25,234 bases of DNA, from positions 1 to 25,234 of the forward strand of contig CAYJSB010000002.1 in the NCBI GenBank assembly GCA_964372805.1. The letters run 5' to 3'. The notes beneath the pieces were generated by a model that saw nothing but the letters and a program-made list of their open reading frames with translations, had not been told where the DNA came from and searched no databases. The stretch is from an uncultured Candidatus Saccharibacteria bacterium (lineage in GTDB: Bacteria > Patescibacteriota > Minisyncoccia > Phycocordibacterales > DSPV01). The position numbers and the translations under genes were made by a program. Within the stretch, counting starts at the first letter, position 1; every line of letters begins with the position of its first letter. Shown piece after piece: positions 913 through 25,234 of the stretch.

Positions 913-2910
913 TTATTTAGCCAGTAATCCGACCAACAGTAACGCAACTATATTCAATATCTTAATCATGGGGTTAATCGCGGGCCCCGCCGTATCTTTG
1001 TATGGGTCGCCAACCGTGTCACCTGTGACAGCCGCTTTATGCGCGTCAGAACCCTTGCCCCCATAATTTCCGGCTTCTATGTATTTCTTCGCATTGTCCC
1101 ATGCCCCGCCTCCCGATGTCATGGAAATTGCCACGAAAAGTCCAGTGATAATTGAGCCGACAAGAAGTCCTCCGAGCGCGACAGGCCCTAGCAGAAATCC
1201 GACAAGAATCGGCGCAAGAACAGGGATAAGTGCCGGAACAACCATTTGCTTGATTGCGGCGCCGGTGACGATATCAACCGCGCGCGCGTAATCAGGTTTT
1301 GCAGTGCCTTCCATGATGCCTTTTATCTCGCGGAATTGGCGGCGCACTTCATTGACGACTTCGCCTGCGGTTTTTCCGACAGCTTCCATTGCAAGCGCCG
1401 CAAAGTAGTAGGGGAGAAGTCCTCCGATGAAGAGCCCGACAAGCACTTTAGGATCGCCAAGCGCAAAAACCAAATCTTTTCCGAGGTTTGCGAATTCTTG
1501 CGTGTAGGAAGCGAACAATACAAGCGCGGCAAGCGCTGCCGAGCTGATAGCGTACCCTTTTGTTACGGCCTTTGTTGTGTTGCCGACGGCGTCAAGCGGG
1601 TCTGTTACATCGCGAACTTCTTTCGGAAGTTCCGCCATTTCGGCTATTCCTCCAGCGTTGTCAGTGATGGGGCCATAGGAGTCGATTGCAACAATAATTC
1701 CGGCCATTGAAAGCATGGACATTGCCGCAACGGCGATTCCGTAAAGTCCTGCAAAATGATAGGTAACAAGAATTCCAGCGACGATAGTCAAAAGTGGAAG
1801 AGCGGTTGATTTCATGGACACCGCAAGCCCCTGAATTATATTTGTTCCGTGTCCCGACAAAGAAGCTTTCGCGATTGACTGAACGGGCTTGTATTTTGTA
1901 GAGGTATAGTATTCGGTGATGATAACAATCAGCGCCGTGACGACGAGGCCTATGATAGACGCTCCAAAGATAGAGCCGACAGAATATTGTCCGTTACTTT
2001 CCATGAGAATTTTTGTAATCGGATAGAAGGCTGCCGCAGACAAGACGCCAGCGACCGCAAGCCCTTTGTAGAGTGCGCCCATGATGTTTTGTGATTTACC
2101 CATTCGCACGAACCAAGTGCCGATTATGGAAGCGATGATTGCGACTCCTCCGATTGCAATAGGGAAGGTTACTGCTCCTTCAAAGCCCTTAAACAGGGCG
2201 CTTCCGAGAATCATTGTCGCGATAGTGGTAACCGCATACGTTTCAAATAAATCAGCCGCCATTCCTGCGCAGTCGCCGACATTGTCGCCGACATTGTCGG
2301 CGATGACGGCGGGGTTGCGCGGGTCGTCTTCTGGAATATTTTTTTCAACTTTGCCGACAAGGTCAGCGCCGACGTCGGCCGCTTTAGTAAAGATGCCGCC
2401 TCCGAGTCGTGCGAAAACGCTGATGAGCGATGCACCGAATCCAAGTCCGATAAGAGCCGTTACGCTTTCAGTCAGCGCGTAATAGCCTGCAACGCCAAGA
2501 AGCGCGAGGCCGACGACAAGAAGCCCAGTAACGCTTCCTCCTTTGAATGCAAGCGAAAGTGCAGGAGCAAGTCCTTTGCGCGCCGCCTCCGCGGTGCGTA
2601 CGTTGGCGCGGACGGAAACGTTCATTCCGATATAGCCGGCAAGCGCGGAGAAAATCGCCCCGACGAGGAATCCTCCGGCGATTTTAATACCAAACGCCGC
2701 CCACAGAATTACGAACAAAATCGTTGCTACCGCGGCAATTGTCCGATACTGGCGGTTGAGATATGCCTTAGCCCCCGAAGCGATGGCGGCGGCGATTTCC
2801 TGCATGCGGGCATTTCCGGCTTCTTTTTTTGAAATGTGTTTTGCCAGCGCGAGACCGTAAATAATTCCGACTACCGAGCTTATAAGCGCAAAAATAACGA
2901 ATGGACTCAT
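913..2910 (-). CDS. hppA: Membrane-bound H+-translocating pyrophosphatase, K+-independent type
   Basis: 665 aa polytopic protein with [20 protein letters not shown] and [10 protein letters not shown] motifs; GNTTKA (Lys) is the established marker of K+-independent enzymes. Confidence 0.97.
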
Positions 2911-2939
2911 GGTAGATAAAGTTAAAAATTAAAAAATCA

Positions 2940-3011
2940 AAATGCAAAATGACAGTTAAAAATGCAAAGTTTCCCGCCTTGTTTTTAATTTTACATTGTC
3001 ATTTTGCATTT
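2940..3011. repeat. 15-bp perfect inverted repeat inside AT-rich 7-bp-period arrays between nusA and hppA
   Basis: AAATGCAAAATGACA (2940-2954) and its reverse complement TGTCATTTTGCATTT (2997-3011). Confidence 0.7.
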
Positions 3012-4185
3012 ATAAGGTTGTCTCGGAGACATTAGGAGTTTTTTCCTCAGATGTCTGCTTTGACACCTCGCCCTCACTTGGTCCTGACGATTGGATGTCA
3101 ATGCGCCAGCCGGTTAATTTTGCCGCAAGACGCACATTTTGCCCGCCTCTGCCTATCGCAAGCGACTGTTGGTCCGCGGCCACCTCCACTTTAGATTGTT
3201 TTTCGTTTTCGTCAACGATTTCTACGGAAAGCACTCGCGCGGGCGATAGCGCGTCTTCAATGAACTGCTTGGTATTCGGCGACCACTCTATAATGTCTAT
3301 TTTTTCTCCGCCGAGCTCCGACATAACGGTAGAAACGCGCACGCCGCGCTGTCCAACAAGAGAGCCGACAGGGTCAATGTGCGAATCTTTTGAAACTACG
3401 GCGACTTTTGAACGAGAGCCGGCTTCGCGCGCTACAGATTTTATTTCAACAACTCCGCTTGAGATTTCCGGCGTTTCCATTGCGAACAGCTTTTCAAGGA
3501 ATTTAGGATGAGAACGAGACAGCTTCAAAAACACGCCCTTCGGGGTTTCTTCAACCTTATAGAGATACGCGCGTACGCGCTCGCCTTGTTTGTAGCGCTC
3601 TCCGGGTATCTGCTCTTCGTATGGTAGTATCGCGTTTGTGCGCCCCATGTCAACGAAAATATTTCCGCGTTCCACGCGCTGAACGGTGCCGGTAACGATA
3701 TCTCCTTCTCGTTTGCCGTACTCTTCCATAACTGATACTTTTTCCGCCTCGCGTATTTTTTGGATGATAACCTGTTTTGCTGTTTGCGCGGCGATGCGTC
3801 CGTAATCGGATTTTTCTTCAAGCGGGAAGACGAGTTCATCGTCCACTTTGGCGTCAGCTTTTATCTTTTGGGCATCTGGCAATAATATGTGATGTTCCGG
3901 ATTGAAACGGATTTTCTCTTCCTCGTCTGGCGAGGTCTCGGGAATCTCTTCATCTTCCATAATAACTCTATCCGGGTCCACAACGGTTTTAACTTGGAAA
4001 AAATCGGTTTTGCCCGAATCTACGTCAAAAGTTGCGCGCACAATTTGCCCTTTCTTTCCGTACTCTTTTTTGTATGCGGTTGCGAGTGCGAGCGCGACGG
4101 CTTCAAGCACGCGTTCTTTTGGAATACCCCGCTCTTCTTCCAATTGTTCCAACACCGATTTTATGACTTTTAGATCAAATAGCAT
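3010..4185 (-). CDS. nusA: Transcription termination/antitermination factor NusA
   Basis: FGRIAAQTAKQV-like YGRIAAQTAKQVIIQKIREAE, S1 domain, KH domains (AREAGSRSKVAV, GSLVGQRGVRV, AIGRGGQNVRLAAKLTGWRIDI). Confidence 0.98.
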   Translation of the reverse strand: MLFDLKVIKSVLEQLEEERGIPKERVLEAVALALATAYKKEYGKKGQIVRATFDVDSGKTDFFQVKTVVDPDRVIMEDEEIPETSPDEEEKIRFNPEHHILLPDAQKIKADAKVDDELVFPLEEKSDYGRIAAQTAKQVIIQKIREAEKVSVMEEYGKREGDIVTGTVQRVERGNIFVDMGRTNAILPYEEQIPGERYKQGERVRAYLYKVEETPKGVFLKLSRSHPKFLEKLFAMETPEISSGVVEIKSVAREAGSRSKVAVVSKDSHIDPVGSLVGQRGVRVSTVMSELGGEKIDIIEWSPNTKQFIEDALSPARVLSVEIVDENEKQSKVEVAADQQSLAIGRGGQNVRLAAKLTGWRIDIQSSGPSEGEVSKQTSEEKTPNVSETTL

Positions 4186-4189
4186 GAAT

Positions 4190-4365
4190 GATTTTTAAGG
4201 AGCGGAGCGACTATAAAAATCTTCACTCCGCCCTAATTTTGCCGCACACAGTCCGTGTGCCGTTCGAATGCCGTAAGATTCAGTTGTTCGCACAGTTGTC
4301 ATGGCTAGTTTTGTGAAATTAGGGCGGGTTTTGAAAAATATACTTCGCTTCACCCGTTATTTTTC
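4190..4365. repeat. Inverted doublet element 1: bulged hairpins A (4190-4221, minus) and D (4333-4365, plus) around a stem-closed core (4228-4328)
   Basis: A = GATTTTTA-T-AG-TCGCTCCGCTC-CT-TAAAAATC; D = GAAAAATA-T-AC-TTCGCTTCACCC-GT-TATTTTTC; core closed by the 12-bp stem CCGCCCTAATTT/AAATTAGGGCGG. Confidence 0.8.
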
Positions 4366-4366
4366 T

Positions 4367-4395
4367 AAAAAATATGTCCGCCGGCAGGCGAACAT
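4367..4395 (-). terminator. Terminator-like hairpin near the start of the nusA leader (possible attenuator)
   Basis: Minus strand ATGTTCGCC-TGCC-GGCGGACAT followed by ATTTTTT, a few nt downstream of the predicted transcription start. Confidence 0.45.
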
Positions 4396-4406
4396 TCAAT
4401 ACAGGC

Positions 4407-4434
4407 AGTATACTCGTTTAAGTTTTGTTGTCAA
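4407..4434 (-). promoter_or_regulatory. nusA promoter TTGACA-16-TATACT
   Basis: Minus strand TTGACA at 4434-4429 and TATACT at 4412-4407; implies a leader of about 215 nt. Confidence 0.75.
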
Positions 4435-4477
4435 GTGAGGATGTGTACAAAAGAGTACTCTGTTTTTGCTATACCTA

Positions 4478-4525
4478 AGCACTAACTTTCCACCTTTCCA
4501 CAAAAAGTTAGTGCTGGGGTATACT
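4478..4525 (+). promoter_or_regulatory. Putative pilB promoter (-10 TATACT at 4520-4525) overlapped by a 12-bp perfect inverted repeat
   Basis: AGCACTAACTTT (4478-4489) and AAAGTTAGTGCT (4504-4515) with a 14-nt spacer, just upstream of TATACT; -35 box weak. Confidence 0.5.
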
Positions 4526-4531
4526 ATTAAT

Positions 4532-4698
4532 GAAACATAAGGAGCGTAACGACTATATGTTTCTTAACCACGTGGAATAACCACGCCAACTCCATGTTGA
4601 TGGATTAAGCAGTAACATTCTATAAACTTTAACGATTTATTTTTTATATCTATTCCACGGGGCGATGATTTTTATGTTCGCTCCGCTCACTAAAAATC
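4532..4698. repeat. Inverted doublet element 2: bulged hairpins C (4532-4563, minus) and B (4667-4698, plus) around a stem-closed core (4568-4662)
   Basis: C = GAAACATA-T-AG-TCGTTACGCTC-CT-TATGTTTC; B = GATTTTTA-T-GT-TCGCTCCGCTC-AC-TAAAAATC; core stem CGTGGAATA (4571-4579) / TATTCCACG (4651-4659). Confidence 0.8.
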
Positions 4699-4702
4699 AA
4701 TC

Positions 4703-6448
4703 ATGTTTATCGAGAAAAAACAGCTAAGAGATTTTGTGCTTGATTCGGGGCTTGTGTCCTCGGTTGATTTTTCCAAAGCGGAAAATGAGGCGGAAAAAGC
4801 CGGCGTGTCGCTTGGCGAAGAACTTGTGCGCGAAGGCAAGATTTCCGAAGACGATTTGCGCCGCATGCAGGCCTATGTGCTTGGCATCCCGTTTGTTGAC
4901 TTGAGAAGCCAAAAACTTGATTTTGAAACGCTCTCGCTGATTCCGGAGCCAATTGCGCGAAAGAACAACATCGTGTCGTTTCGGAAATCTGATAAAGGAC
5001 TTGAGGTGGCCATGCTTGATACCTCGGACCTTGGCGCGATTGATTTCATAAAAAAGAAAGTAGGAACGAAAATTCTGCCGCGTTTGACCAATACCGAATC
5101 TATTAAAAATGCGCTTTTGCAATACCAGAAATCCCTCAAAGCAGAGTTCGGCGATATTATTAAAAAGGAATCTTCCTCAATCAAAGCAATAAAGGAACTT
5201 GCAGACGACGCATCCGAAAAAGATCTAAAAAAGATGGCGGAAGACCTGCCAGTCGTGCGCATTGTCGATACGCTGCTGAAGCACGCAATTATCCAGAACG
5301 CTTCTGACATACATATTGAACAAGAAGAAACGGAAGTTGTCGTGCGCTATCGGATAGATGGCATTTTGCACGACACGATGGTTCTCCCCAAACACGTGGG
5401 TCCATCGCTTGTTGCGCGCATCAAAGTGCTTTCTAACCTGCGCCTCGACGAGAAGCGCCTTCCGCAAGACGGGCGCTTCAAAATTGAAACGGAAGGCGAC
5501 AAGGTTTCGTTTCGCGTTTCTATTCTTCCTACGTCATTTGGCGAAAAAATCGTAATGCGCCTTCTTAAGGAAAATTCTAAGGGCTATACTCTCGAGGGAT
5601 TGGGTTTCCACGGCAAGGCGCTTGAAGATATACATTCGTCTTTGAAGAGGACAACGGGAATGATTTTATCGACCGGCCCCACGGGGTCAGGAAAAACGAC
5701 GACTCTCTACACGACGCTCGATATTCTTAATACGCCAAGCGTCAATATCTCGACAATTGAAGACCCTGTGGAATATCAGATGAATCGCATCAATCAATCG
5801 CAAGTGAAACCAGAGATAGGTTTTACGTTTGCTTCCGGATTGCGCTCCTTGGTTCGCCAAGACCCCGACATCATAATGGTCGGCGAAATCCGCGACAACG
5901 AAACAGCGTCGCTTGCTATCAATGCGTCTTTGACCGGCCACCTTGTGCTCTCAACGCTTCACACGAATTCGGCGGCAGGCGCGATTCCGCGTTTATTGGA
6001 TATGAAAGTTGAGCCGTTTTTACTTGTCTCTACTCTTGATGTGGTTATCGGCCAGCGTCTTGTTAGGAAGCTTTCAGAAAAACGCGAGAAATATTTTATG
6101 ACCAAAGATAAGCTAAACACGCTTCGCAAGTCGGTTGATTTGGACAGAGTGCTGGCATTTCTAAAAGAGGAAAAAATAGTGGACAAAGATGCCGTATGGG
6201 AAAAAATTCCTTTCTATCGGCCTATCCAATCCGAAACAGGCGACGGATATCACGGCCGAGTGGTTATTCATGAAGTGCTAAAAGTTACGCCAACGATCAA
6301 AAATTTGATTATCAAAGGAGCGTCTTCAGATGAGATAGAGGCGCAGGCGAAAAAGGAGGGAATGATGACGATGATAGAAGATGGGATTTTTAAGGTTGTG
6401 CAGGGAATTACGACGCTAGAAGAAGTGTTGCGGGTAGTAACAGAGTAG
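4703..6448 (+). CDS. pilB: Type IV pilus / type II secretion assembly ATPase, PilB/GspE family
   Basis: N-terminal MshEN/GspE-N-like region, ASDIHIE, RLPQDGR, Walker A GPTGSGKTT, TIEDPVE, DPDIIMVGEIRD, TGHLVLSTLHTN. Confidence 0.96.
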   Translation: MFIEKKQLRDFVLDSGLVSSVDFSKAENEAEKAGVSLGEELVREGKISEDDLRRMQAYVLGIPFVDLRSQKLDFETLSLIPEPIARKNNIVSFRKSDKGLEVAMLDTSDLGAIDFIKKKVGTKILPRLTNTESIKNALLQYQKSLKAEFGDIIKKESSSIKAIKELADDASEKDLKKMAEDLPVVRIVDTLLKHAIIQNASDIHIEQEETEVVVRYRIDGILHDTMVLPKHVGPSLVARIKVLSNLRLDEKRLPQDGRFKIETEGDKVSFRVSILPTSFGEKIVMRLLKENSKGYTLEGLGFHGKALEDIHSSLKRTTGMILSTGPTGSGKTTTLYTTLDILNTPSVNISTIEDPVEYQMNRINQSQVKPEIGFTFASGLRSLVRQDPDIIMVGEIRDNETASLAINASLTGHLVLSTLHTNSAAGAIPRLLDMKVEPFLLVSTLDVVIGQRLVRKLSEKREKYFMTKDKLNTLRKSVDLDRVLAFLKEEKIVDKDAVWEKIPFYRPIQSETGDGYHGRVVIHEVLKVTPTIKNLIIKGASSDEIEAQAKKEGMMTMIEDGIFKVVQGITTLEEVLRVVTE

Positions 6449-11699: not shown

Positions 11700-12488
11700 A
11701 TGCCACACGGTAAAAAACTCATTGTCGGAAACTGGAAGATGAATCCTCCAACGACAGAGGAGGCGAAGGCGATTTTTAGAAAAATCAAGCGAATAGCAGG
11801 ACGAATTCGGAAATCTGAAGTTGTGATTTGCCCCTCTGAAATCCATCTATCGGCGCTTGCGCGGCTTGCTTCTGGTGGGAAAGTGTCGCTTGGAGTTCAA
11901 GACGTGTTTTGGGAAGACGAAGGTTTTTTTACGGGCCAAGTGTCCCCGATGCAAGCTCGCGATGCCGGCGCTACCTATGCGATTGTCGGGCATTCGGAGA
12001 AAAGAAAGCTTGGCGAGACGAATGAGCAGGTCGCGAAAAAACTGAAGGCGGTAGTGCGCGACGGGCTTGTCGGAATTCTCTGCATCGGAGAAGCCGAGCG
12101 CGACCGCGACGGCCGTTTTTACGACGTACTTGCATCGGAGCTCCTTGGGTCGTTGTCGGAGGTGAAAGCTGAAGCGTTAAAAAAATCCGTTGTGATTGCG
12201 TATGAGCCGATTTGGGAAATAGGGAGGGCAGATATGCGTGCGATGAAACCGTTAAGCGTTCACGAAACTTCTATTTTTATACGAAAAGTAATTAATGACG
12301 CGTTTGGCGCGCAAGCTTCGCATGTAGTCCCAATTTTGTACGGGGGTTCGGTAAGCGCCGAGAACGCGCGCGCGATTGTTTTTGACGGCGAGATGGACGG
12401 ATTGCTTATCGGACGGCAGAGTTTGGATGCGAATGCGTTTTCGGAGATTCTTAAGCAGATAGATTCTTCAAAAAATGGCAAAAAATGA
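11700..12488 (+). CDS. tpiA: Triosephosphate isomerase
   Basis: GNWKMN, VGHSEKR, AYEPIW, ILYGGSV motifs; start taken at ATG 11700. Confidence 0.97.
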   Translation: MPHGKKLIVGNWKMNPPTTEEAKAIFRKIKRIAGRIRKSEVVICPSEIHLSALARLASGGKVSLGVQDVFWEDEGFFTGQVSPMQARDAGATYAIVGHSEKRKLGETNEQVAKKLKAVVRDGLVGILCIGEAERDRDGRFYDVLASELLGSLSEVKAEALKKSVVIAYEPIWEIGRADMRAMKPLSVHETSIFIRKVINDAFGAQASHVVPILYGGSVSAENARAIVFDGEMDGLLIGRQSLDANAFSEILKQIDSSKNGKK

Positions 12489-15142: not shown

Positions 15143-15154
15143 TTTACCCATGAA

Positions 15155-15277
15155 TCCCGTTAGAGACCGCTTCGCTACGGGAAACTAAATCTATCAGTGC
15201 TTATCTTGTTTACAAATAGTAATATGACAAAACGAAGTTTGTATAACTGCAAGAAGCGTTCCCTGTCTCTGACGGGA
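15155..15277. mobile_element. 123-bp MITE-like insertion with 12-bp terminal inverted repeats and a TGAA direct repeat on both sides
   Basis: TCCCGTTAGAGA (15155-15166) and TCTCTGACGGGA (15266-15277), 11/12 complementary; TGAA at 15151-15154 and 15278-15281. Confidence 0.7.
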
Positions 15278-16989
15278 TGAAATACGCACTACGAAAGCGT
15301 TCCGATGACACTCTCCGCGTTGGGCTTGCCGAGTACCCGGAATTATTACAGCACCTGCTATTCTCGCGCGGCATCATGGATGCGTCTTCCGCGCAGGCTT
15401 TTATAAACCCACAGTACGAGGCTCATAGCCACGACCCGTTTTTAATGAAGGGAATGGAGGAAGCGGTCTCAAGAATCTATTCTCTTATTCGTGAGAATAA
15501 GAGAATAGTTATTTTTAGCGATTACGACGCGGACGGGGTGCCGGGCGGTGTCGTGCTCCATGACTTTTTCAAGAAAATTGGATTTACCAACTTTAGCAAT
15601 TACATTCCGCATCGCCACGACGAGGGGTTTGGTCTAAACTCGGAAGCGATTGAAGAATTCGCGCAAGACGGCGTGCAGCTTATCATCACCGTTGACTGCG
15701 GTATCGCCGACGAAAAAGAAATCAAGCAGGCAAAGAAACTTGGCGTTGAAACAATTGTTACCGACCACCACCTGCCTCCACCAAACGGCGTGCCGAGCGC
15801 GTTTGCTATACTTGACCCGAAACAGAAGGGTTGTAAGTATCCGTTCAAAGAACTCTGCGGTGCCGGCGTCGCCTTCAAACTTGTCCAGGCTTTGCTTTTG
15901 CGTGCCTCTACACTAACCCCTTCACCCTTCACCCTGCCACCCGTCGGCTGGGAAAAGTGGCTACTTGATTTGGTTGGCATCGCGACGCTTTCCGACATGG
16001 TTCCGCTTGTCGGTGAGAACCGCGTATTCGCGCGTTACGGGCTACTCGTCCTGCGCAAGTCCCCGCGCCCAGGGCTTCAGAAACTCTTGCGTAAGTCGGG
16101 TATTGACCAGCGACGGCTCACCGAAGACGATATCGCGTTTTCCGTCACACCGAAACTGAATGCCGCTTCGCGGTTGGGCTCTCCGGATGTTGCGTTCCGC
16201 CTGCTTGCGACAACTGATGAGACTGAAGCCGACACGATGGTGGACCAGCTTGCGCACCTGAACAATGAGCGCAAGGGCATTGTGGGAAACTTAGTGCGGG
16301 AAATCAAGAAAATCGTTGCGGAGCGGTATGAAAATCCACACGTTATCGTCGTCGGAAACCCCTTGTGGCGGCCCTCACTCCTCGGGCTTGCCGCGAATAC
16401 GCTCGCGCGCGAACACGCATGCCCCGTGTTTCTCTGGGGACGCGACGGCGAGAATTGTATCAAGGGTTCATGCCGAAGTGACGGGCAGGTGAGCGTGTTC
16501 GCGCTTATGCAGGCGGCACGCGGCGCGTTCTTGGAATTTGGCGGGCACGCGTTTTCGGGCGGGTTCTCTGTCGCGCAGGATAAAATTCACACGCTTGAGG
16601 CGACGCTTTCTGCCGCGCGCGAAAAAGTAGAGAAATCCGGAGAGCTTGCCGAGACTGTTGTCGACTGGAAACTTCGGCCAGATGAAGCGAGCACCGATAC
16701 TCACCGTTTGCTCTCGCAGCTCGCGCCGTTTGGTGAAGGAAATCCGAAGCCCGTTTTTCTTTTAGATAACGTGCTCGTGCAGCAGGTAAAGAGTTTCGGA
16801 AAAGAAAAAAATCATTTGGAACTTTTACTTACAAAAAGTAACGGCGGAAGCGTAAAAGCGATAAGTTTCTTTTTTGAAAATGCGCGCCCGCCTCAAGCGG
16901 GCGCGCATATCTCTCTCCTCGCCTCGCTTGAAGAATCAAGCTTTGGCGGCCGCACTGAACTCCGCTTGCGGATTGTGGAAATCCTGTAG
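15277..16989 (+). CDS. recJ: Single-stranded DNA exonuclease RecJ
   Basis: DHH motifs SDYDADG, TVDCG, TDHH, ATLSDMVPL, NAASRL; DHHA1 GGHAFSGG; C-terminal OB region PFGEGNPKPVF. Confidence 0.97.
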   Translation: MKYALRKRSDDTLRVGLAEYPELLQHLLFSRGIMDASSAQAFINPQYEAHSHDPFLMKGMEEAVSRIYSLIRENKRIVIFSDYDADGVPGGVVLHDFFKKIGFTNFSNYIPHRHDEGFGLNSEAIEEFAQDGVQLIITVDCGIADEKEIKQAKKLGVETIVTDHHLPPPNGVPSAFAILDPKQKGCKYPFKELCGAGVAFKLVQALLLRASTLTPSPFTLPPVGWEKWLLDLVGIATLSDMVPLVGENRVFARYGLLVLRKSPRPGLQKLLRKSGIDQRRLTEDDIAFSVTPKLNAASRLGSPDVAFRLLATTDETEADTMVDQLAHLNNERKGIVGNLVREIKKIVAERYENPHVIVVGNPLWRPSLLGLAANTLAREHACPVFLWGRDGENCIKGSCRSDGQVSVFALMQAARGAFLEFGGHAFSGGFSVAQDKIHTLEATLSAAREKVEKSGELAETVVDWKLRPDEASTDTHRLLSQLAPFGEGNPKPVFLLDNVLVQQVKSFGKEKNHLELLLTKSNGGSVKAISFFFENARPPQAGAHISLLASLEESSFGGRTELRLRIVEIL

Positions 16990-24994: not shown

Positions 24995-25002
24995 GGTCGC
25001 TC

Positions 25003-25168
25003 GCATTCCTCTTTTGCAGAGCAGAATGCTTCGGCAATCGAAATGCATAGTCGTCTCATGACGGAAATCGTATAACTCGTCCACAAAAAGTCCTCAAACA
25101 GATACGATTTCCTATTCGCCTCCTTGCATTTCAGATTGCCTTTCGCAATGCTCGACAAAAGAGAATAC
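25003..25168. ncRNA. Long nested imperfect hairpin (structured RNA or MITE-like element; identity unknown)
   Basis: Three nested stems: 25003-25023/25149-25168, 25033-25047/25125-25140 and 25063-25073/25102-25112. Confidence 0.45.
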
Positions 25169-25185
25169 TCGCTCTTGAGTTTACG

Positions 25186-25223
25186 ATCAAGGACGGTCCT
25201 TGATGTCAAGGACCGTCCTTGAT
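25186..25223. repeat. Doublet of 17-bp palindromes that together form a larger palindrome
   Basis: A-TCAAGGACGGTCCTTGA-TG-TCAAGGACCGTCCTTGA-T; the second unit is the reverse complement of the first. Confidence 0.85.
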
Positions 25224-25234
25224 ATAAGGTCACG

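Follow-up and report, generated by a model that had tools for sequence, protein, structure and literature searches.

Why should two divergent genes, nusA and pilB, each begin 4 nt beyond a copy of the same bulged hairpin? The question is raised by a 517-bp spacer in contig CAYJSB010000002.1 of an uncultured Candidatus Saccharibacteria bacterium (assembly GCA_964372805.1; genome G000, 757 kb in 97 contigs), of which the whole 25,234-nt stretch analyzed is referred to here as the window. The spacer separates nusA (3010-4185, minus strand) from pilB (4703-6448, plus strand) and, as read from the window sequence, contains four hairpins of a single design, A, D, C, and B, arranged as two doublets of ~175 bp each. 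We consider it likely that the nusA and pilB doublets are gene-less copies, resembling miniature inverted-repeat transposable elements (MITEs), belonging to a family of small mobile DNA elements in Parcubacteria (Paceibacterota), and we read them as acting at the DNA level, as gene-less derivatives.

Two hairpin doublets in the nusA–pilB spacer

In each hairpin, an 8-bp A/T-rich stem and a 2-bp stem, separated by a bulged T, carry a TCGCTNCGCTC-like loop, and DNA folding regained this fold for A, B, C, and D on either strand (z-scores −1.4 to −2.95), in agreement with a preliminary description of the locus that had recognized four copies of one fold. Hairpins A and B, the gene-proximal type, are identical at 31 of the 36 nt preceding their respective ATGs; four of the five differences constitute an AG/CT versus GT/AC swap, confirming that they are compensatory as first described, and the fifth (ATTC versus AATC) is accompanied by a matching change in the inner flank (TGAA versus CGAT). 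Hairpins C and D, the distal type, differ in their outer stems and keep the pairing, bulge, and loop, and the fold was recovered for both. The proposed arrangement as two inverted doublets (A with D and C with B), each around a core closed by its own stem, is likewise borne out by the pairing within those stems.

In the nusA element, hairpin A (GATTTTTA/TAAAAATC, loop TCGCTCCGCTC; 4190-4221, minus strand; 54.9 bits with the covariance model introduced below) has its 3' end 4 nt before the nusA ATG (4185-4183, minus strand). The adjoining stretch at 4185-4189 (minus strand) forms the outer strand of a flanking helix, P0, and reads A-TTCA in the sense direction: an unpaired A (4189) is followed by TTCA (4188-4185), the last A of which is the A of the nusA ATG. 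This TTCA is complementary to the guide-like inner tetranucleotide (4222-4225, minus strand), whose TGAA (4225-4222) pairs with it, an extension also present in the DNA fold. Core 1 follows at 4226-4332 (minus strand), with a closing stem (4228-4239/4316-4327) paired at 12 of 12 positions. The element is completed by hairpin D (GAAAAATA/TATTTTTC; 45.3 bits) at 4333-4365, given on the plus strand, which shows the bulged-T form and is antisense to nusA; the TTTT of its inner flank (4329-4332) forms pairs with AAAA (4367-4370).

The pilB element has the same layout. Hairpin C (GAAACATA/TATGTTTC, loop TCGTTACGCTC; 55.6 bits) is found at 4532-4563, again given on the strand with the bulged-T form (minus), which is antisense to pilB. 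Core 2 (4564-4666, plus strand) comprises a TTAA linker, a closing stem (4568-4579/4651-4662) paired at 11 of 12 positions, and the inner tetranucleotide CGAT (4663-4666). Hairpin B (GATTTTTA/TAAAAATC, loop TCGCTCCGCTC; 48.9 bits) occupies 4667-4698 (plus strand) and also ends 4 nt before its ATG (4703-4705), so that the spacing originally noted for A and B holds at both genes; its outer flank (4699-4703, plus strand) is an unpaired A followed by ATCA, the last A being the A of the pilB ATG.

Covariation reaches the start codon

Across 59 hairpins of G000 and its relatives, the stem positions are paired in 97.3% of cells versus 65.4% in shuffles, and 160 double-sided changes are observed versus 49 in shuffles, values that none of 500 shuffles reached; these figures lean toward structure, since the model guided the alignment and the copies share ancestry. 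Neighbouring hairpins are divergent in 28 of 30 pairs, and in 43 of 43 doublets one GATTTTTA/TAAAAATC hairpin, always gene-proximal, is joined by one distal hairpin of the GAAAAATA/TATTTTTC type. The two ends of a doublet thus fall short of exact inverted repeats of each other; their stems are flipped, and A-rich outer arms and T-rich inner arms are seen on the sense strand. The smallest core across genomes is a GC hairpin of 17 nt, and the largest reach about 145 nt.

The docking seen at nusA and pilB recurs throughout the family. A count of distances to start codons, as the preliminary description had proposed, places the first ATG exactly 4 nt downstream in 72 of 121 distinct proximal hairpins (at +1 in eight and at +3 in five). 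At the other end of the element, upstream open reading frames (ORFs) mostly terminate either inside the distal hairpin or only a few bases from it, with a second group stopping 16-19 nt inside, and where there is no upstream ORF a terminator T-run precedes the distal hairpin.

Covariation of the flank helix was assessed over 72 proximal hairpins, in which the 4 nt on the 5' side pair with the 4 nt that start one base past the hairpin and end on the A of the ATG (the A itself and the three bases preceding it). Pairing amounts to 94.1%, versus 78.8 ± 1.2% in shuffles (maximum 83.3%) and 14-51% when the register is slid. The variants are TGAT/ATCA (33), TGGC/GCCA (9), TGGT/ACCA (7), TAAA/TTTA (4), TGAA/TTCA (2), and others including TGAC/GTCA; the window contributes TGAA/TTCA at nusA and CGAT/ATCA at pilB. 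At the distal hairpin, flank pairing is weak and heterogeneous (56-61% versus 46-53% in shuffles). The nominal loop itself holds a 2-bp apex helix that closes a triloop: positions 3-9 and 4-8 are both Watson–Crick in 101 of the 121 proximal hairpins, compared with 39.9 expected if the two sides were independent, and the pair types are GC/GC, GT/AC, AC/GT, and AT/AT. Hairpin stems, apex, and the 4-bp flank helix containing the A of the ATG all covary.

A multi-copy family, patchily distributed

A covariance model built from ten hairpin copies retrieved 17 hairpins on 11 contigs of G000, with at least six doublets. Doublets also lie upstream of nusB, rplQ, and rpsR; rplX, rpsS, rplP, and a parB-like gene are each preceded by a lone proximal hairpin, and one hairpin copy lies downstream of rpsM. 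Core 1, from the nusA element, shares 92% identity with its counterpart in the element before rpsR on contig C18, the hairpins of these two elements being different, and core 2, from the pilB element, is homologous to that of the rplQ element on contig C95, the whole elements being 66% identical. Two G000 contigs terminate in the same 53 nt of an element, indicating that the repeats break the assembly, and DNA contigs aligned to the region show the hairpin positions to be multi-copy in the community. Gene order near the elements needs care, since G000 contigs end inside repeats. On the 2.8-kb contig C95 (L007, positions 1-400), an S14-like C-terminus is joined to rplQ across the element, possibly through a mis-join of the assembly at this repeat.

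Hairpin matches are patchy among 41 relatives: the congener G005 has 15, G001, G002, and G004 have one weak match each, G003 has none, and several other families of the order have two to eight each. The search of genome and relatives that was suggested in the preliminary description thus revealed more than a local duplication. Scanning with the proximal-hairpin pattern returned at least 119 stretches across Parcubacteria, under record titles naming Nomura-, Taga-, Campbell-, Adler-, Kaiser-, Lloyd-, Yonath-, and Taylorbacteria as well as 'Paceibacterota'. The genes preceded by the hairpin include ribosomal-protein genes, nusA, nusB, recA, ssb, and secE, and nusA also has an element in G007, from another genus, and in G040, from another family.

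Empty sites and recent copies

Five of five congeners share the nusA promoter (TTGACA-16-TATACT) and leader hairpin, after which the ATG is reached within 20-90 nt and no family hairpin intervenes, and in the four of four congeners examined a TATACT box stands 28-43 nt ahead of the pilB ATG with no element. The divergent nusA/pilB synteny is kept in G001, with a spacer of 210 bp. As the promoters are kept and the element is missing, we regard these as empty sites; the comparison of upstream regions envisaged at the outset therefore finds both loci unoccupied in same-genus genomes, and the nusB and rplQ sites are likewise empty in congeners. The G005 elements before rplQ and rpsM are identical at 182 of 183 positions, pointing to recent copying, and at the ssb-rpsR junction elements are present in both G000 and G005 with different cores. 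The combination of empty sites, near-identical copies, and core differences is the behaviour of mobile, recombining DNA.

Enlarged cores encode a small GIY-YIG protein

Elsewhere, enlarged cores contain an ORF of 85-95 aa, always in sense orientation, with the distal hairpin on its 5' side and the proximal hairpin on its 3' side. The loci are L121 (ORF at 260-538), L037 (484-741, 85 aa, between nusG and rplK in G040), L088 (the same nusG-rplK junction in another genome), L069 (pheS-pheT), and L175. The encoded proteins match the Pfam GIY-YIG family PF01541 (E = 1e-17 to 1e-19), with the domain spanning nearly the whole protein; their homologues are mostly 84-92 aa long, and their matches in NCBIfam and PDB are weak and generic to GIY-YIG. 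The 3' arm of the closing stem supplies the codons for their C-termini (...KSYLTG or ...KSYFTG), and the TGA or TAA within the inner tetranucleotide serves as stop codon. Elements that lack the gene but share these closing stems (CCCTGTTAAAT...ATTTAACAGGG) are common and, because the stem arm encodes the GIY-YIG C-terminus, their closing stems look like retained gene ends.

A full element would accordingly be pictured in four parts: a distal bulged hairpin beside the stop codon or terminator that precedes it, a core whose closing stem is C-rich/G-rich, within that core (in full-length copies) a gene for a single-domain GIY-YIG nuclease of 85-95 aa with its last codons in the 3' closing-stem arm, and a proximal bulged hairpin ending 4 nt ahead of the downstream ATG. 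By analogy with the Ssn nucleases considered below, the hairpins may be cis sites that the element's nuclease recognizes as single-stranded DNA. In IS608, a guide tetranucleotide base-pairs with the cleavage site; in a comparable manner, the inner tetranucleotide may read the flanking NNCA before TG by base pairing, and such pairing would explain the exact docking on start codons. On the mobile-element reading, both window copies were inserted into the nusA and pilB 5' leaders and are co-transcribed with these genes, and they are probably tolerated there because each is a self-contained fold that keeps the sequence just ahead of the ATG A-rich.

These analogies also permit a bolder proposal, which we offer tentatively and with more doubt than conviction: the family might be a minimal transposon with a mechanism of a new kind, its sole protein a GIY-YIG single-stranded-DNA nuclease of ~90 aa and its hairpin ends equipped with a 4-nt guide that pairs with NNCA before TG. 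Such an element would be aimed at start codons by pairing, with the ATG rebuilt using the element's own last base, and would combine IS608-like guide targeting with a different enzyme class, the guide being re-aimable by four base changes. More generally, if the doublets are gene-less members of a mobile family, one modular mobile element would account for a large share of the little non-coding DNA that these tiny genomes have, covering the leaders of nusA, nusB, pilB, and many ribosomal-protein genes and landing on start codons with single-base precision without killing essential genes. This would bear on the tolerance of bacteria of the candidate phyla radiation (CPR) for mobile DNA inside core operons, on the role of the very common ~90-aa GIY-YIG proteins in these bacteria, and on whether a hairpin and a 4-nt guide direct a minimal nuclease to a chosen site.

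The first alternative in the preliminary description, a non-autonomous mobile element beside start codons, is supported by these results: the family is multi-copy and patchy in relatives, its sites are empty in congeners, near-identical copies are present at different genes, its orientation to the gene is fixed, and some of its members encode an enzyme. Several observations weigh against it. G000 has three small GIY-YIG genes, one in an insertion in the 16S gene and two adjoining smpB/tmRNA; none of them is inside a doublet and none is of the '...KSYLTG' subgroup. Small GIY-YIG genes are present in 38 of 41 relatives with no co-occurrence with hairpin count, so that the link between enzyme and hairpin is an architectural one, and the gene could be a lodger in the cores rather than the mobilizer. 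No direct repeat indicative of target-site duplication flanks the doublets; the left edges of some copies share ATG or TAG only. The empty sites of congeners contain unrelated spacers of 6-90 nt, and the insertion event is therefore not reconstructable base by base. Finally, the hairpin sequence is near-identical across the whole class, biased to housekeeping genes and fixed in orientation, features that would also fit a host function. An excision model, with a 5'-TG...CA-3' element lying between A and TG, gave tidy junctions (nusB, C95) and was set aside, the congener empty sites providing no confirmation of it.

The 16S gene of G000 (1501-3255 of locus L043, C15 9881-13580) is split by several insertions, and the contig ends within the gene. 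The insertion with a 94-aa GIY-YIG ORF (L043 3149-3433) is bracketed by CCCCCACTTTT/AAAAGTGGGGG. Within the window, a rod-like element after rpsG (24997-25174) is about 70% (127/181) identical to the 16S insertion at C15, about 11906-12080; both read as a hairpin built like those of the doublets (8-bp stem, bulged T, AG/CT) whose loop encloses another hairpin.

Leader RNA or mobile DNA

The strongest competing explanation is that the doublet is primarily a functional mRNA module and only secondarily mobile, its distal hairpin capping or stabilizing the upstream message or the 5' end, and its proximal hairpin, together with the 4-bp helix, holding the start codon and controlling translation of genes that have no Shine–Dalgarno motif. 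The position of the window copies invites this explanation. The host nusA promoter (TTGACA-16-TATACT; 4434-4407, minus strand) and a terminator-like leader hairpin with its T-run (4395-4374, minus strand) are outside the element, which occupies the stretch from the leader T-run to the nusA ATG, hairpins D to A; as promoter and leader hairpin stand upstream, the nusA element is within the transcribed leader. The pilB element begins 6 nt past the −10 box of a host promoter-like site (TCCACA-17-TATACT; 4497-4525, plus strand). An RNA effect is thus possible, because both copies are in transcribed 5' leaders downstream of promoters. The invariant orientation to the gene (43 of 43 doublets) and the inclusion of the A of the ATG in a covarying helix are as expected of such a module, as are the conservation of the hairpin sequence over many Parcubacteria lineages, its placement before ribosomal-protein, nusA, nusB, recA, ssb, and secE genes, and the presence of an element at nusA in three different genera or families.

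However, four of the five congeners are without the element at the same genes while still keeping the promoters, and the two ends use one motif in opposite orientations, so that an RNA would show two different motifs. G–U pairs are rare (9 of 590 cells), and minimum-free-energy folds of whole elements reveal no strand bias (88 versus 87 G–U pairs). Among single mismatches in the apex, 17 of 19 are A·C on the sense strand, equivalent to G·T on the antisense strand, and two are the other way, in what are small numbers from non-independent copies. On the antisense strand the apex has the form GC-GNA-GC, a very stable type of DNA mini-hairpin. The loops of the two hairpins in one element show no mutual covariation, for which reason a kissing-loop interaction between them was also rejected. 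The Rfam query produced no family match to the hairpins: there were no gathering-score matches in the whole window and, at E values up to 10, only chance-level matches in 3900-5000 (E at least 1); a tRNA/tmRNA scan found none. Taken with these points, the leader-RNA module is an unlikely account of the doublets. Of the second alternative in the preliminary description, a shared leader RNA, at most a possible side effect on transcribed leaders survives; as the primary explanation, leader-RNA control is disfavoured by the patchy distribution, the inverted use of the motif, and apex pairs that form better on the antisense strand.

Other interpretations of the leader sequences were considered and rejected. 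A promoter reading of TAAAAA at −12 to −7 with a leaderless ATG matches the −35/−10 consensus poorly, the actual promoters lie upstream, and promoters require no stem covariation. A boxA/Nus reading of CGCTCCTTAAAAATCA fails because the motif is not kept in the distal copies, has variable inner pairs, and is half base-paired, and a Shine–Dalgarno sequence (AAGGAG) displayed in the loop of the distal hairpin was set aside in view of an inner 2-bp stem that is free to vary. The nusA promoter and the terminator-like hairpin and T-run that follow it (4374-4434, minus strand) are kept in five of five congeners, and this conserved hairpin and T-run may be an attenuator sensed by NusA. At pilB, a 20-nt inverted repeat (4470-4523, 18 of 20 positions complementary) extends over the −35 to −10 region of the promoter-like site.

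Less probable still, to a degree that makes us doubt it strongly, is that the hairpins are REPINs moved by a RAYT, or IS200/IS605-type ends moved by a Y1 HUH transposase, the mobilizer initially suggested. Bulged hairpins, inverted doublets, and a 4-nt guide-like pairing between inner tetranucleotide and flank are features shared with REPIN/RAYT and IS200/IS605 systems, since the tetranucleotide 5' of the hairpin foot pairs just beyond the hairpin, as guide and cleavage site pair in IS608. The search for a RAYT/Y1 gene succeeded in that G000 contains three Y1 (PF01797) genes, but these are bracketed by other, G+C-richer palindromes and not by the doublet hairpins. Y1 genes occur in many hairpin-less relatives and are missing from some with the hairpin; among the 41 relatives, G015, G019, and G037 have the hairpin without Y1, and G009, G017, G023, and G033 have Y1 without the hairpin. 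Moreover, a doublet has its ends on opposite strands, in contrast to the single strand shared by IS200/IS605 ends, and no Y1 gene was seen inside any element, where GIY-YIG genes were. This part of the earlier proposal is consequently not supported. The RAYT-like Y1 genes, on contigs C11, C44, and C25, have their own palindromes of the AGGACCGACCTTGATGTCAAGGTCGGTCCTTGAT type, a second, separate repeat family that is also represented at the end of the window (25186-25230).

A local duplication or chance palindrome has virtually no chance of being correct and is already refuted by the 17 copies on 11 contigs, the hundreds in other genomes, and the strong covariation.

Comparison with published systems

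The closest published system to the mobile element family preferred here is that of the Ssn nucleases and their NTS/SRM hairpin repeats. Ssn is a 94-aa single-domain GIY-YIG protein that cuts single-stranded DNA by the hairpin repeats flanking its gene (Chenal et al., Nat Commun 2025; PMC11893778). Both systems have a single-domain GIY-YIG gene of ~90 aa bracketed by hairpin repeats; in both, the repeats are also scattered as many gene-less copies around genes, and the antisense apex GC-GNA-GC resembles the GCG-MAV-GC apex of the Neisseria NTS consensus (PMC11893778). The hairpin of the present family differs in sequence and shape, with an A/T stem, a bulged T, and a TC/TC internal loop, and its asymmetric doublet, stem-closed core, and docking 4 nt from the start codon through a covarying 4-bp helix are undescribed in PMC11893778, which makes no mention of Patescibacteria or start codons. 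The NTS consensus and its core are absent from G000. In some Parcubacteria relatives, a motif close to the NTS consensus (TGTCATTCCCGCGAAGGCGGGAATCTAGG) is found beside family hairpins in L059 (383-411), L060, and L182.

With bacterial MITEs such as Correia/NEMIS, ERIC/IRU, RUP, and BOX (compare PMC3184786 and PMC2229807), the doublets share being short, gene-less, palindromic, multi-copy, and intergenic; they are also transcribed with flanking genes and present or absent between close relatives. Of the attributes by which MITEs are known, the family has many copies per genome, inverted terminal structures, filled and empty sites, and enzyme-encoding full-length relatives with the same ends, with the exception of target-site duplication. 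Known MITEs originate from DDE insertion sequences, generate target-site duplications, and lie in either orientation at a loose distance from genes, whereas the present element has a GIY-YIG parent, no duplication was found, and its position and orientation to the start codon are fixed. The Seg proteins, free-standing GIY-YIG homing endonucleases of T4-like phages, are similar in that their genes are wedged between conserved housekeeping genes (compare PMC2330249). They differ in having added DNA-binding domains and are not known to have hairpin ends or gene-less derivatives; in the present family the catalytic domain stands alone. Searching the literature for CPR palindromic repeats or start-codon MITEs yielded nothing specific. 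We read the start-codon-docking, GIY-YIG-associated hairpin family as a new form of kinds already known, namely MITEs and Ssn-type hairpin repeats.

Other elements in leaders and beside tRNA genes

An element at the recJ start codon (window 15150-15281) has the same CCGCTTCGCTACG loop motif; its C-rich/G-rich ends resemble the stems that close the cores, and it is probably a relative without the hairpins. A third family of leader filler is A/T-rich, starting with GCAAAATG(C/T)AAATATCAAAAT and ending in TTTTAA-type runs just before the ATG; it is seen in the ssb and ftsX-like leaders of G000 and in the nusA leader of G005 (L019). Lastly, proximal-type hairpins form a tRNA-adjacent class (L086, L097, L100, L107, L109, L115, L116, L122, L124, L134, and L139) with the layout CCCCACTTG - hairpin - TCGG - reverse complement of the tRNA 3' end, from which it follows that the hairpin directly follows the tRNA gene.

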